A program made the translations under genes and the position numbers. A stretch of DNA of 64,000 nt. It comes from Eledone cirrhosa (taxonomy: Eukaryota). The notes beneath the pieces are model-generated. The model was not told the DNA's origin. It searched no databases and saw only the letters and a list, made by a program, of their open reading frames with translations. The first letter of the stretch is position 1. Each line of letters opens with the position of its first letter. The stretch covers positions 123,132,001 to 123,196,000 of the forward strand of contig OZ024740.1 of assembly GCA_964016885.1 (NCBI GenBank), written 5' to 3'. Positions 10,908 through 63,508 of the stretch are shown here, piece by piece.

Positions 10908-11004
10908 TATATGTATATATATATGTATATATATATATATATATATATATATATATATATATATATATATATATATATATATATATATATATATATATAT
11001 ATAT
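10908..11004. repeat. (TA)n microsatellite
   Basis: Seen directly. Confidence 0.97.
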
Positions 11005-11058
11005 AAAATAAAGTAATTAGGTCAAATATTTAAAATTTGGCTTTGTTATTTAATATGT

Positions 11059-11113
11059 ACTGTTATATATATTTTGGTGACAGCCATCATTGGCTGTGAC
11101 CTCTTCAGGCAGT
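11059..11113 (-). ncRNA. Degenerate type-I hammerhead ribozyme motif at a Penelope-like 3' end
   Basis: Minus strand reads actgc-CTGAAGA-ggtcacagcca(atga)tggctgtcacc-aAAA-tatat-ATA-acagt. GAAA is mutated to AAAA and stem I has one mismatch. Confidence 0.6.
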
Positions 11114-11244
11114 CCGAATTGGTGTGGTAGAGACAGGTACACATGTTGTTAAAGTGTTTTACTCTGTCAATACTCTGATATGTCCACCTCCTGGTTGGGT
11201 TGTTATTTCTCTGAGGAACTGGAATCATATCCAGTTCCTCAGAG

Positions 11245-11378
11245 ATGGAAGTTAGTCCAGAACTAGCCGTCGAAACGGCTTGAGTTCAGCCATCGGGGTC
11301 CTACTCGTTCCTATTACCCACTCTACTATTGAGTACTTTGGTGCGTTATGGTCCACCTGGTTGCTTACCACATTTCCT
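11245..11378 (+). mobile_element. Short (TA)n-associated repeat, family Y (also at 25321-25465 minus and 58061-58370)
   Basis: Shares tagccgtcgaaacggcttgag...ggggtc...gtgcgttatggtcca...taccaca with the other copies and ends at (TA)n. Confidence 0.75.
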
Positions 11379-12256
11379 TATATATATATATATATATATA
11401 TTCATATGTATTCCTATAGGTATGTGTGCATGTATGTATGTATTTATTTATATATATCAATATATATCAATATTATTATAAATGTATGTGAGTATATTAT
11501 TATTTTGGCCAACTTTCCATCCTTAGTTAATGGAGAGAGAGAGAGAGAGAGAGAGAGAGATTCAAAATGAAATAATGCTCACCAAATTCCCTATGGTGTT
11601 TATGGAATATCAAAATATAACAAGGTTTTATGTAATGATGTATGAATAATGATCACTATCAGGAAATAACAAAAATATCTCTCCCAAATTGAGGTTCTGT
11701 TATATATTTTTTTTTTTCCTTTCATACATGCTATCACATGTAACTCAAACAAAAACAAAAACCCAAAAAAATATAAGAAACAAGAATTAAATACAAATGA
11801 ATGTAAGTAAAAAGTAGAGATTATTTTAATCCCAGTAGTAAAAAATAAAAAAAATCTCATTTATTTTCATCTAAACTTTCTTATTGATATCATTTAAACA
11901 GTTTGTATGTATATTTGTTAAAAAATAAAGCAGAATGTATTAAACATATAATGTTTTTTATTGATTTTGGACATTGGACATTGGCCATGCTACGTCATGG
12001 CCATCTAGTGTATTGAGTGATTATATCAATTCCAGAGTTCTTATTTCCGCCAGGTACTTATATTTTCTGTCTGAATTTGCTGAACTGCTAAGTAACTGAA
12101 CGTAACTAGACACAAACTTGCATATTGACAAAAAAGTTGACACATACATATGCATAAATATGTGTGTGTGTGTGTGTGTGTCTGATCATCATCATTCTAT
12201 GTTCAGTATTGTTTTTGGTGGGTCATGGGGACAATGCTTGTAGAGTCTAATATATA

Positions 12257-12490
12257 TCATCATCATCACCATTTAACGTCCATTTTTCCCTGCTGGCATG
12301 GGTTAGTCGAGTTGCGAGCAATGCCAAGTCAGGTGACCGATTTTGGCTTGGTTTCTACAGCTGGATGCCCTTCCTAACACCAACCACATTTACATTGAGA
12401 AATGGGTGCTTTTTGTCATGGTGCTTATATGACCACTTTACAGTGTGGGCTGGGTGCCTTTTGCATGACACCTACATAACCACTTTACAG
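12257..12490 (-). mobile_element. RTE-3'UTR-related short element (SINE tail or truncated RTE)
   Basis: (CAT)n-tttaacgtcc...gcatgggtt...ggatgcccttcctaacaccaacc is the reverse complement of the RTE 3' UTR at 28170-28349. Confidence 0.75.
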
Positions 12491-12509
12491 TATATATATA
12501 TATATTTTG

Positions 12510-12803
12510 GGAGAGTCATACTGCCAATAAAAATACATGCACCTGTTCGATTTCATTTCAATTTATTATAAACTCACAGTTGGTTTGTTTAATAACAGGA
12601 TGGTTATTTAGTTGTTGTTGATTGTCAAAGCTCTTTTATCACATATTCTGTGACCTCCTCAGTGACTAATTTTGTAGTTATTTTGTGTCTCTCCTTTGTT
12701 CTGGGCAAAAAGTCATGTTACTAAACTTACCGACTATGAGTTTATAATAAATTGAAGCGAAATCCAACAGGTGCAGTTGTTTTTATTGGCAGAATGTCCC
12801 TCC
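12510..12803. mobile_element. Fold-back MITE with imperfect terminal inverted repeats of about 90 bp
   Basis: ggagagtcatactgccaataaaaatacatgcacctgttcgatttc...tttattataaactc pairs with gagtttataataaa...gaaatccaacaggtgcagttgtttttattggcagaatgtccctcc. Confidence 0.75.
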
Positions 12804-12884
12804 TAAGTTATAACAACATCTGTTTCATCACACGTGGACAGATAAGAAATCTTGCACAAAAATACAAAAACGAAGTATGTATAT

Positions 12885-60300: not shown

Positions 60301-60562
60301 TGTAAGAATGAGCAACAAAGTGTATGAGGAATTTTGTAGTGATAAATCATTGAAAAGTATTTTGTTGGTAGGGATAATTAGAGTTGATATCTTGTTAAAT
60401 TAATAGTATATATAAATGTAATTCACTATGAAATATAGTGTCCAATATATAAGCCTTCTCTAAATTTCAAGGTTATCTTATCATAGTAGCATATGGTCAC
60501 CATCTCTCAAAAATTCTCCATATCAATTAGTAGCTTCTATTGGGTTCATAGAAATTTCAATT

Positions 60563-61030
60563 ATAATAATAATGAAATTATTGTATAGAGTGCTCAGGTG
60601 CACTACAACTCATCAAAGGTACATAGAATAATATACAAATGTCAGGGAAATGTGTATGGAGGGGGAATATTAGGTGTAGTGTTGGCGAATCTCAGGAAGC
60701 ATGGAGGTTTTAAAGGATGCAGTGTCTCGACAGCTAACAACTGATGCAGAGAGTTTGTTTCATGCTTCTGCAAATCTGAGCATGAAAAGATGTTTCCAAA
60801 AGTCATGGGAGCTGTGCTGTTTTCGGACTTTGTTGGCATGTCCACTTGTGTTAGACACAAGAAAATCAAAAAATTACTCAGGGTTTTTGTAGGCAAGATG
60901 GTTAATAATGTTGTGGGTGTTTACCAAGTCAGTTGCCAGACGTCGGCGCTTCAATGTATCCATGCCACGGGAAATAAGGCGTTCAGAGAAATTTTGTGGA
61001 AGTTTGGTTATAAACATATCTGAAGGACAT
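60563..61030 (-). mobile_element. CR1-like LINE 3' end with (ATT)n tail
   Basis: MDTLKRRRLATDLVNTHNIINHL and a degenerate HLFMLRFAEA*NKLSASVVSCRDTASFK C-terminus. Confidence 0.75.
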
Positions 61031-61219
61031 GTAGTATATAGAGTCATCATCATCATCATCATCATAGTTCATTTCTTTCTTCTGCTGCCATAAAGTAAAT
61101 GTTTTTTTTAAAGACCAATTCAATACTTAATTGGCATTACTGTACTTACTATCTTCAATTTGATATTCATACAAACCCTTGCCTATGGTCATGACTGTTA
61201 GGTAATGACTGAATGAATA

Positions 61220-61570
61220 CGATCACAAATGCAAGTGGCTGAAATGGAGTTCCTCTGAAGAGTCTTTGAAGTAATGTTACTTGACAGTGTGTGTAGCTCA
61301 GAGATCACAGAGTCACTTCCGGTAGAGATACCAGCTCCGGTATTTAGGCCCTGTGTTTACATTGCCACAGAAAAGAAATTCTGGACCTATTTTATGGGCA
61401 AAGTCATCCAGCAGGAGACCCAGGAGTAGACCCGAGGCAAGATGGTTAGATAAAATCCATGAGCTTGGCTGACCTGCTTGGGGATTCAGCTGGATCAGTT
61501 GCTTCTGACAGTGCCTGCGGGAAGGATTGTTTACGGACTCTACTTCCATGACCCTCTCAGGGATAAGTGA
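61220..61570 (+). mobile_element. Decayed RTE (Expander-like) 3' coding end
   Basis: YQLRYLGPV and RRPRSRPEARWLDKI peptides. Confidence 0.5.
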
Positions 61571-62023
61571 GAGAAGAAGAAGATAATTACCTCTACCAAA
61601 TAGTTTCAATTAAGCCAAACTAATTATTCTAGTTTCATAGAAATTGCCAGTTAACAGTTAATTATAATGGAATTTCAGGCTGACAAAATCTCATAAAACA
61701 AACACAGAAAATAAAAAAAAACTACTCCAGAATTAGACATGAGACAAACTGAGAGTTAGCCAGTGTGTGGGTGGGAGCAGAAAACTGTTATAATAATACA
61801 GTAGTAGAATCATATATGCTGGCAGAGTAAATCCAAATAAAAATAATAAATCATAATTATTATAGAGAGATATGAATATGTATATATGAGTGTGTGTGTG
61901 TCTGTGTGTGAAAAATAATTATGATTTATTATTTTTCTTTGCATTTAAACTCTTCCAACATATATGATTCTCCTACTGTATTATTATAACAGTTTTCTGC
62001 CCCCACCCACACACTGGCTTACT

Positions 62024-62586
62024 TATATATATATATATATATATATATATATATATATATATATGTGTGTATATATATAAATGTATATATATATATAGTT
62101 TATATAATAGTGTATATATATATATATATATATATATATATATATATATATATATATATATATACACTATTATATAAATATATAAATGTATATATATATA
62201 TAGTTTATATAATAGTGTATATTTATATATATATATATATATATATTTATTATTTTTCCTCATTACATTACGTCCGTTATTTTATTTTATATCAGTCTCG
62301 CTTTCAATTGCTTTAGGCTTTATTTTGATATCCATATCTCACATCCATTTCAAAATAAATTTCATTCTGACGAACGATTTCAGATGTCTGAGTCGACCTC
62401 GTCTGTCTTCGTGAAACATTTGGTAAATGCAATAATTGTCTTATGTTGTTTATTACATAACTATATATATATATATATATATATATATATATATATATAT
62501 ATATATATATATATATATATATATATATATATATATATATATATATATATATATATATATATATATATATATATATATATGTATAT
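62024..62586. repeat. Compound (TA)n arrays with an internal duplication and an embedded island of about 215 bp
   Basis: tataaatgtatatatatatatagtttatataatagtgtat occurs twice; pure (TA)n at 62462-62580. Confidence 0.9.
62363..62429 (+). ncRNA. Type-I hammerhead ribozyme motif
   Basis: catt-CTGACGA-acga[31 nt]tcgt-GAAAC-atttg-GTA-aatg. Confidence 0.68.
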
Positions 62587-62930
62587 AACATTTTCGTTCT
62601 ACATGGTTGAATGCAATAAATGTAATATTCGAAACATACGGTATATTGCCAAACATACTATGCATACATTAATGTATACATCGCTATTTCAGCGCTTCAT
62701 TCCTAATACTTATTTTTTGCTGGCACGGCAATCGGTCTGTATAATCAACTCCTGTTTATTACTGAAATTCTATAAGATTCCAGCTTCTATAATTTTTGGT
62801 GGAAGGGGGCAGTACGTAGCTCTGATGATTGCCAAACAGCATTCTCTGCCTTTTTTCGCCGAAAAGAAGTAAGTGACATAGACACTACTTTAAAAATGAT
62901 ACCATAAGGTCTTCAAAATGTTTTTAATAT

Positions 62931-63090
62931 ATCATCATCGTCGTTTAACGTCTATCTTCCACGCTAGCATGGGTTTAGACAGGAATTTGCCCACTTGAGG
63001 CAAGATTGGTTGTCTTGCTCGTATAGGACTATCTGGCAGGTTTCCTACGACTGGGTGCCCTTCCTAACACCAACCACGTTTACAGTGTGG
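62931..63090 (-). mobile_element. RTE 3'-end fragment with short TA runs on both sides
   Basis: Reverse complement of the RTE 3' UTR (ccacttgaggcaag, ggactatctggcagg). Confidence 0.8.
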
Positions 63091-63442
63091 ATATATACTG
63101 TATATATATTAATAAAATTTGAGTATTCTCATCACAGAAGGTAGCTGTTACCAGCTGTATACTACTTGCATAGTAACATTTTTTTAATTTTTGTAAAGAT
63201 ATAACCATAAATCGAATGGAGAGTGTGGAAGAGAGAGGGAGAAAGAGAAGAGAAAAGAGGGGCTTAAAGGGAGAGAGAGGAGAGGAGGAGGCGAGAGAAA
63301 ATTGTGGACTAGAGCGATGGAGAGATGATAGAAAGATGGAGTGAAAGATTATCAAGAATAAGGTACTTGACGTTATTTGGATCGTCAATCCCCTATCGAT
63401 ATTCTGCGATATAATTTTGCAACATAGTTTCACTCGAAAATG

Positions 63443-63508
63443 TATATATAAATATATATATATATATATATATATATATATATATATATATATATATATA
63501 TATATATA
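63443..63508. repeat. (TA)n microsatellite
   Basis: Seen directly. Confidence 0.95.

Follow-up and report, generated by a model that had tools for sequence, protein, structure and literature searches.

The window analyzed here, 64,000 nucleotides (nt) of Eledone cirrhosa DNA (assembly GCA_964016885.1, 3.0 Gb; contig OZ024740.1, positions 123,132,001 to 123,196,000), is a retroelement nest containing 37 (TA)n tracts of at least 12 nt. Islands at these tracts carry hammerhead ribozyme cores, and we refer to their families as A (11.0 kb), B (41.9 kb), C (43.6 kb), D (57.2 kb), and E (62.4 kb), together with X and Y. The original prediction, made from the sequence alone, had placed hammerhead-bearing islands in (TA)n tracts at five named places, and type I elements are indeed present at all five. 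Most islands are very probably 5′-truncated ends of coding Penelope-like elements (PLEs) of the Hydra clade; D and C share the same kind of ends and likely use the same enzymes.

Hammerhead cores in the window

Hammerheads were sought with a descriptor of two core boxes and three stems, using 20 shuffles of the window as controls. Four intact hammerheads were matched in the window (B on both strands, D, and Y) compared with two in all 20 shuffles combined, which agrees with the expectation that cores would be more frequent than in shuffled sequence. The first 150 loci yielded 214 matches against two in shuffles; these loci were chosen for their islands and are thus enriched by design. Cruder descriptors missed most copies because of the long stem II and palindromic stem III, and the first of them found only D and one unrelated match at 15499. 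The window copies of A, C, and E escape the descriptor because of point changes or a weak stem III: GAAA reads AAAA in A, and the C core reads CUGAUGG. In the column majority of aligned loci, A, C, and E have a canonical core and a paired stem I (25/25 loci each), and D has a canonical core (30/30). An Rfam scan of the window gave no hammerhead family match up to E 5; its top matches were microRNA models on TA-rich palindromes, all under the gathering score. With minimum-energy folding, D alone came near the hammerhead shape (z −0.4).

Variant cores had been proposed for X and Y, and both families have them. The Y core is CAGAAGA (U4 to A) in 13/13 copies with full context. Among 16 full X ribozymes, 11 have U3-A8, four C3-A8, and one A3-A8; the full form comprises a CCCC/GGGG stem I, the core UUGANAA, a long stem II, GAAA, a four-pair stem III, and a GUC site. 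Complete X ribozymes are confined to longer copies, and the window X copies hold the 3′ half only. U3-A8 covariation is a known natural variant, present in Schistosoma elements (PMC4209133; PMC3088659), and minimal Penelope ribozymes are described as weak in vitro and possibly in need of a dimer or protein (PMC11167929, PMC4209133). Further unrelated ribozyme families occur in the loci, as 19 clusters in at least three loci each, a few of which are subfamilies or likely chance.

A first look at the genome gave 2415 candidates for A, 1466 for B, 1929 for C, 359 for D, 1465 for E, and 3866 for X. Counted as arms, a B 34-mer has 3,571 exact genome matches, a Y 30-mer has 27,825, and a 30-mer pattern of X has 13,130 near-exact places; reversed controls gave 0 in each case. 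The samples of D, A, C, and E are best-scoring matches and thus non-random. Those of B, X, and Y are the first places in genome order on the window's own contig (C1), found with patterns lying behind the cut site. The B sample consists of 30 listed places and 40 stretches hand-picked from the next listed; it omits a small number of widely spaced pairs listed late among the 100 places and excludes arms less than 330 nt from a locus edge. Boundaries were counted in separate alignments, by script for B and Y and by eye for X, for which a second independent set was read. In the boundary analysis, C and Y had no anchor, the reference for E and for a further family, F, was too distant from the copies, and A offered only three arms.

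Reading frames of families A, B, X, and Y

Longer copies show, at the level of sequence, that the A, B, X, and Y islands are 5′-truncated ends of coding elements with reverse transcriptase (RT) and GIY-YIG domains and Hydra-clade motifs: in independent loci, such copies reach an RT plus GIY-YIG frame 1 to 3.3 kb upstream. Family A occupies 11006..11245 (minus strand), with its short 3′ end at 11006 on a (TA)n tract, its core at 11102-11108 carrying a G12 to A change, a predicted cut after 11064, and a 5′ junction at 11230 within a small fold-back (11208-11245). Elsewhere, the A frame ends 1304 and 1433 nt before the core (loci L203, L204), and L139 also has a frame. Family B forms a head-to-head insertion at 41704..42244, centered on 41907, in which the left arm (minus) has its short end at 41704 and the right arm (plus) its long end at 42244; the cores (41915-41921 on the plus strand, 41894-41900 on the minus strand) have a 104-nt stem II and a palindromic stem III, with a predicted cut after 42037. 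At locus L136, an 860-nt ribozyme-bearing repeat of B precedes an 801-amino acid open frame and recurs 3.3 kb behind it. The linkage was confirmed in loci L137, L208, and L211; the 3′ region of B measures 2.3 to 3.3 kb. A diverged B-like short end with a tail fragment also lies amid TA tracts at 56093-56204.

The Y ribozyme lies 959 and 968 nt behind a frame (loci L201, L202). In the window, Y forms a head-to-head insertion at 58397..58621 (centre 58464; left arm minus with the short end, right arm plus with the long end at 58621) whose core, CAGAAGA, lies at 58467-58473 (plus) with a predicted cut after 58506. A decayed Y head-to-head insertion is present at 47979..48125, a partial copy at 56019..56076 (minus), and the tail alone, that is, the interval from the short to the long 3′ end, at 41624..41687 (minus), with a second such piece at 43394-43472. 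Family X stands behind a frame in the inverted arm of locus L210, and locus L200 matches the L210 spacer at 74 to 77%, from 67 nt behind the stop region. The window holds three X copies. One, at 11254..11378 (plus), starts at the X junction hot spot and comprises the 3′ hammerhead half (GAAA, stem III, and cut site) and a tail whose long 3′ end abuts (TA)n; one, at 25324..25450 (minus), has the long 3′ end and is flanked by two TA tracts; and one, at 58041..58367, has an inverted arm, its plus arm showing GAAA at 58248, the GUC cut site at 58268-58270, and the long end at (TA)n.

All four families have a single frame with an RT, recognized by the motifs FDI, MG-SDS, and YRDD, followed by a C-terminal GIY-YIG domain. 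RWR or RWT and DKT (in place of DKG) were found in the frames of B and A as well as in two further local frames. The CxCx5C linker, CxxC, and CxH were seen by eye in B and two other frames, the aligned piece of A lacking the linker region, and no CCHH motif was seen in the frames inspected by eye (B, A, and two others). The Y and X frames were assigned by tblastn likeness alone, and the motifs were read in the other frames. Best-matching stretches of the C-terminal parts are 35 to 57% identical between families. Pfam recognized GIY-YIG weakly on the A piece only (E 0.006, below the cut-off) and gave no match on four of five Hydra-type proteins; Pfam and PDB sequence searches gave the frames no name. 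All four families also have a hammerhead in a terminal repeat and insert at (TA)n, with variant cores in X and Y. The Hydra clade is described as having canonical hammerheads and (TA)n insertion, also in octopus (PMC8557442). We therefore assign A, B, X, and Y to the Hydra clade by motifs, as distinct from placement in an RT tree. The loci also hold more abundant Hydra-type families (L206, L207, L266, L262, L197), namely F and the B-like G, the latter with C3-G8 or U3-A8 cores; F and G nest into each other's TA tracts. An open 821-amino acid Hydra frame of yet another family lies at locus L143.

The window contains a decayed GIY-YIG end with the 3′ region of another PLE at 55200..55806 (plus), including a hammerhead-like remnant at 55644-55696 and a CxxC between the GIY and YIG parts; from its motifs, we take it to be of Penelope/Poseidon type. 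It had been put forward (as 55200-55810) as a remnant of the helper that mobilizes the islands. It had no tblastn match to three Hydra frames at E 0.01, and no Pfam match. The remnant is not Hydra-type and not the likely helper; the coding Hydra families are better candidates.

These findings bear on the view that every island is a non-autonomous ribozyme element in its own right, served by the remnant family as helper. Short copies do greatly outnumber long ones, D and C are non-coding, and no frame was found for E; A, B, X, and Y, however, reach their own frames in independent loci, and those frames are unlike the remnant. The view is thereby refuted for A, B, X, and Y, and as an account of all islands we consider it highly improbable. 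The non-autonomous set originally proposed shrinks to D and C, with E as a further candidate, and "non-coding" describes the islands as they lie in the window but not most of their families. The opposite extreme, in which every island is the end of a coding PLE, fits A, B, X, and Y but not D, and probably not C. The broader proposal, that several unrelated hammerhead families share a (TA)n target and Penelope-like machinery, stands.

Two 3′ ends and head-to-head pairs

Behind the predicted cut site, each family shows two 3′ ends, one short and one long. The 3′ end is followed by (TA)3 or longer in 79/82 B arms, 29/30 Y arms, and 32/34 X arms, compared with 9% of random 40-nt pieces of the window. 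In the tandem at locus L136, the long end of B continues into the 5′ leader and start codon; therefore, the 3′ ends are internal RNA positions. Head-to-head pairs combine one short and one long end in 17/17 cases for B, 2/2 for Y, and, by the motif rule, 7/8 for X; the eighth X pair is also short plus long as judged by its distance to TA.

A YGAGYRCT-like motif is found in the tails of five of the eight families tested (A, B, E, X, and Y; in C and F it is changed or found in other copies), and the D tail is without it. It recurs shortly before the start codon, after TTAG, in two tandems (L136 2085-2095; L206). The motif may be a protein-binding, promoter, or splice signal.

5′ junctions

The 5′ boundaries of B cluster just upstream of the ribozyme. 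Of 82 arms, 16 start precisely at the A of TTC^ATTATT, one base ahead of stem I, and 35 lie within −3 to +8; the remainder comprises nine between −86 and −6, 22 beyond the reach of the alignment, and 16 further 3′. Copies beginning at the ribozyme cut site were considered and set aside, as only two of the 82 B arms do so. For X, 26/34 arms start within −3 to +17 of TC^AGTC, inside stem II, and none start between there and the core; the other eight hold the whole ribozyme. An independent set from other loci has 7/32 X arms exactly at TTC^AGT. In a query-selected set of A with 23 readable copies, 11 have their break no more than a few bases from TTC^ATA.

The original prediction placed the inversion point at or inside the 5′ core of the ribozyme in three elements. 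This is so for B (41907) and, less clearly, for Y (58464), both of which fall on a family-wide hot spot; it does not hold for D (57450), whose junctions are scattered. X, which had not been listed, is also systematic.

The initiator consensus is TCA(G/T)T, and the hot-spot motifs resemble it. An added G is present at the junctions of the window B, A, and Y copies. Transcripts of Penelope and Chlamys are described as starting in the repeat. On balance, the 5′ hot spot is probably the 5′ end of the RNA.

The hot spots could instead be splice acceptors or structural stops of the RT at the ribozyme, with palindromes arising by fold-back self-priming. The X (TTCAG/TTTAG) and Y (GTTAG) hot spots fall on YAG, and an intron of the Drosophila virilis Penelope ends at the 5′ end of helix I (PMC4209133). 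Many junctions show microhomology or short filler, the excess of a cap-derived G is not significant, and fold-back self-priming has been proposed on an antisense template (PMC3846280). The principal B site, TTC^ATT, however, has no AG, the junctions share no common upstream exon, and simple fold-back leaves the different fixed ends of the two arms in 17/17 B pairs unexplained. We regard this explanation, which concerns the mechanism and not the identity of the elements, as a less likely alternative to an RNA 5′ end, with a splice acceptor a serious contender for X and Y.

Family D, a retrozyme

By its sequence, D is a non-long-terminal-repeat (non-LTR) retrozyme with a 426-nt non-coding tandem unit and a type I hammerhead. 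The window copy (56939..57760) has a left arm (minus, 57439-56939) of 1.2 units that ends at (TA)n and an inverted right arm (plus, 57450-57751); its one complete ribozyme has its core at 57242-57248 (minus) and a predicted cut after 57218. Arrays of 8 and 32 units occur, and a 490-nt relative forms an array of six; this relative (locus L196 1-2900; units of 484 to 496 nt, about 80% alike) ends at the short site before TA, as does the 8-unit D array. The 3′ half motif is present in every unit counted in the long arrays, and 9/30 loci have a complete hammerhead in at least two consecutive units within 3.2 kb. No frame of its own was found upstream of D, and neighboring frames end in the ribozymes of other families.

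The 3′ ends of 30 D copies fall near +279 from the cut site in 15 and near +220 in seven; five lie elsewhere and three run off the locus. Thus, 22 of 27 readable copies end at one of two fixed sites, both of which lie outside the query, and a TA run then follows in about 19 of the 22. Nine inverted pairs have both ends at fixed sites, and eight of them combine the two sites; the exception is the window copy. The 5′ junctions are scattered, and the window centre (57450) is on no hot spot; such scatter is as expected from a circular or multimeric RNA template. The shared insertion footprint makes it likely that D is moved by Penelope-like enzymes.

D might also be a satellite spread by recombination or DNA rolling-circle copying, its ribozyme being a relic. 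The 32-unit array would suit such an origin, and among the runs listed there was no RNA dataset holding D. Most sampled D copies, however, are short and dispersed over many contigs, with two fixed ends beside TA and short-plus-long inversions. The canonical core is the column majority in 30/30 loci, and stem I has changed on both sides between D and its relatives (U-G, G-U, and A-U at one pair). A satellite origin is accordingly very improbable. Comparison of four sequencing runs with D gave very high depth in one run of uncertain kind, and a diverged relative of D was present in a sequencing run of another organism.

Families C and E

The window copy of C (43544..43698, plus) is a truncated copy of a permuted non-coding unit of about 2.4 kb that has two fixed ends at TA; it has the short 3′ end at (TA)n, a core at 43579-43585 with an A9 to G change, and a predicted cut after 43628. 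In loci L257, L258, and L268, the C tail continues into a 2.3-kb body that leads back to the ribozyme. The longest open frame has 93 amino acids, with a best tblastn match to Hydra frames at E 0.14. We consider C a non-coding unit that is likely to be moved by the same enzymes as D.

The window copy of E (62247..62461, plus) is likewise truncated, with its core at 62367-62373, a predicted cut after 62425, and the short 3′ end at (TA)n. Upstream, E extends for at least 1.1 kb through microsatellite-like sequence, and an apparent fixed 5′ end at about −600 was rejected as an internal TA tract. Frames near C, D, and E copies were also rejected as their parents, each ending in the ribozyme of another family before the island (L195, L206, L207, L140, L265, L266).

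Another possibility is that C and E represent the ends of old coding elements, with a frame that either decayed or lies beyond the stretch covered. Their copies are only 72 to 90% alike, and the 3′ regions of other families extend to 3.3 kb. The C tail, however, joins the body directly in three loci, at the point where coding families have a leader and start codon. As C copies are old, this excludes decay of a former frame only in part, and for E there is no counter-evidence. Taking the two families together, we rate a decayed coding origin as rather unlikely and prefer a non-coding C.

Other elements of the window

Two more palindromes lie on or beside TA tracts (28656-28760 and 61754-62023) and gave no hammerhead match; they are possibly ends of hammerhead-less families. 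Further TA-flanked islands occur at 62581-62930, which has a GAAA followed by a short hairpin, and from 63509. A non-LTR element that we take to be RTE-like, with an open 859-amino acid RT frame, lies at 25412-28357, with copies at 43838-45310 and 56232-56902. Many short (ATC)n-tailed ends of this element or of a related short interspersed nuclear element adjoin TA tracts (25120, 43719, 55810, 56246); the niche is therefore common to a second class of retroelement. Two kinds of broken non-LTR element occur in the GC-richer region 1-9700, which also has a direct repeat of 1.05 kb (1-1051, 5730-6772).

A model for insertion

We propose that the GIY-YIG domain nicks both strands of a (TA)n tract, and that each nick would prime reverse transcription at one of two internal sites, 20 to 280 nt behind an uncut ribozyme. 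Two such internal start sites on uncut RNA have been seen in vitro for an anole element (PMC11167929). Synthesis of the two complementary DNAs (cDNAs) would often terminate where the transcript begins, at an initiator-like site that lies at or within the ribozyme; the products would then be joined head to head. For longer copies, synthesis may begin in the downstream repeat or jump template. D may be copied from circular or multi-unit RNA, which would give copies of more than one unit and scattered 5′ junctions. Each insertion would leave TA on both sides, and some insertions carry TA inside, allowing later copies to nest. Nicking of both strands, two-site priming, the 5′ stop, and joining would together yield short palindromic islands, a one-sided tail, and nesting.

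The model builds on what is seen in the copies: the frame link of A, B, X, and Y, two fixed 3′ ends with adjoining (TA)n, short-plus-long pairs, the B and X hot spots, and the tandem build of D. Work in vitro on another clade backs the priming step; that the cDNAs stop and are joined in this way, and that D and C RNA is used, we infer. In its fullest form, the genome would be a record of PLE insertion, with two-site priming on both (TA)n strands and strong-stop cDNAs at a capped 5′ end. D would undergo the same priming on circular RNA, and Y, the most abundant family, would tolerate U4A. In another family, the RNA would begin within the ribozyme, leaving the 3′ copy as the only one able to cut. 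We see the arguments for and against this full form as evenly matched.

Several observations weigh against our interpretation. No coding partner sharing D or C sequence was found, E is tied to no reading frame, nearby frames belonging to other families, and recombination may account for the growth of the 32-unit D array. In octopus, the preference for (TA)n extends to naiads. Because this preference is shared and a coding partner was not found, the helper clade of D is only inferred. The Y hot spot is modest, with 2/30 arms at the exact TT^AGTT and 8/30 within −4 to +6, and the X and Y hot spots also resemble AG splice acceptors. An extra G occurs at the B hot spot in 6/16 arms versus 7/44 elsewhere, which is not significant (Fisher p 0.09). 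Finally, the other five window copies do not fold near the hammerhead shape at minimum energy.

The model leads to countable predictions: two priming sites per family, one for each target strand, and a stop at a mapped base. It also predicts that a Hydra protein encoded in the same genome by a nearly intact frame should accept a 426-nt D RNA as substrate. A large share of the short unclassified repeats beside TA tracts in this genome would be Hydra ends.

Comparison with known systems

Elements of this kind, their ribozyme, and their target were all described before. Earlier papers report the (TA)n preference, hammerheads, tails, and inverted arms, and the shared (TA)n niche, presented as a finding in the original prediction, had been described for the Hydra clade (PMC8557442, section 11, File S1). 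Hydra elements share with the families described here an RT with C-terminal GIY-YIG, the RWK-like, DKT, CxCx5C, CxxC, and CxH motifs, a type I hammerhead in a terminal repeat, (TA)n targets, partial tandems, an inverted 5′ arm, and a tail at one end (PMC8557442). The present case differs from that description in several respects: a single genome contains at least five distinct coding families, whose end copies number in the thousands to tens of thousands; the 3′ regions measure 1 to 3.3 kb, making the elements longer than the <3 kb described; the tails have 60 to 140 nt rather than 30 to 40; stem II reaches 104 nt; and U3-A8 and A4 cores occur. One octopus Hydra family is catalogued, Hydra-1_Obim, and its printed ribozyme is, by eye, none of A to E, X, or Y (PMC8557442). 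A 2026 octopus repeat annotation, in the parts that bear on repeats, has no word on ribozymes or Hydra (PMC13282606). The literature searched, with Repbase and Dfam outside the comparison, held no report of these families, the U4A core, junctions mapped to a start site, a retrozyme footprint, or strict short-plus-long pairing. A, B, X, and Y add new families to a known clade, and D is a new member of the non-LTR retrozymes.

Minimal PLE hammerheads likewise have a palindromic helix III, an extra or mismatched base at helix II, and U3-A8, and they occur as single truncated copies and as opposite-strand pairs 100 to 700 bp apart; the sections on these ribozymes make no mention of a family-wide U4A core (PMC4209133, PMC3088659). 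Penelope families of Adineta vaga resemble the present ones in their head-to-head repeats, palindromic junctions, one-arm tail, and initiator-like motif (PMC3846280). They were explained by self-priming on an antisense template, whereas the counts obtained here better fit priming of both strands on sense RNA.

The closest biochemical counterpart is PAc, an anole Poseidon element, for which both strands of an AT-rich target are nicked and extended, two internal start sites bound the tail, and the uncut RNA serves as template, the ribozyme not being needed (PMC11167929). The PAc start sites lie in the reading frame; here they lie in the 5′ leader. The account of priming in that paper is silent on cDNA stops and on short-plus-long pairing.

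Like animal non-LTR retrozymes, which are non-coding tandem repeats of about 150 to 450 bp, D is built of 426-nt units with a type I hammerhead in each and ranges from monomers to multimers; as in those retrozymes, a palindromic tetraloop caps a helix III of a single pair, and helix II has a U-U mismatch at its base (PMC7229834, 10.64898/2026.07.22.740005). Circular RNA and cleavage have been shown for those retrozymes; D is known here from sequence. How PLEs make inverted and tandem ends, what role the hammerhead plays, and what moves retrozymes are left open in the relevant parts of the earlier papers (PMC8557442, PMC11167929, PMC7229834). Mobilization of retrozymes by Penelope-like enzymes was deduced there from co-occurrence and sequence likeness (PMC7229834, 10.64898/2026.07.22.740005), whereas D carries the insertion footprint itself; if our interpretation is correct, its two-site footprint would be direct evidence that Penelope-like enzymes move retrozymes.

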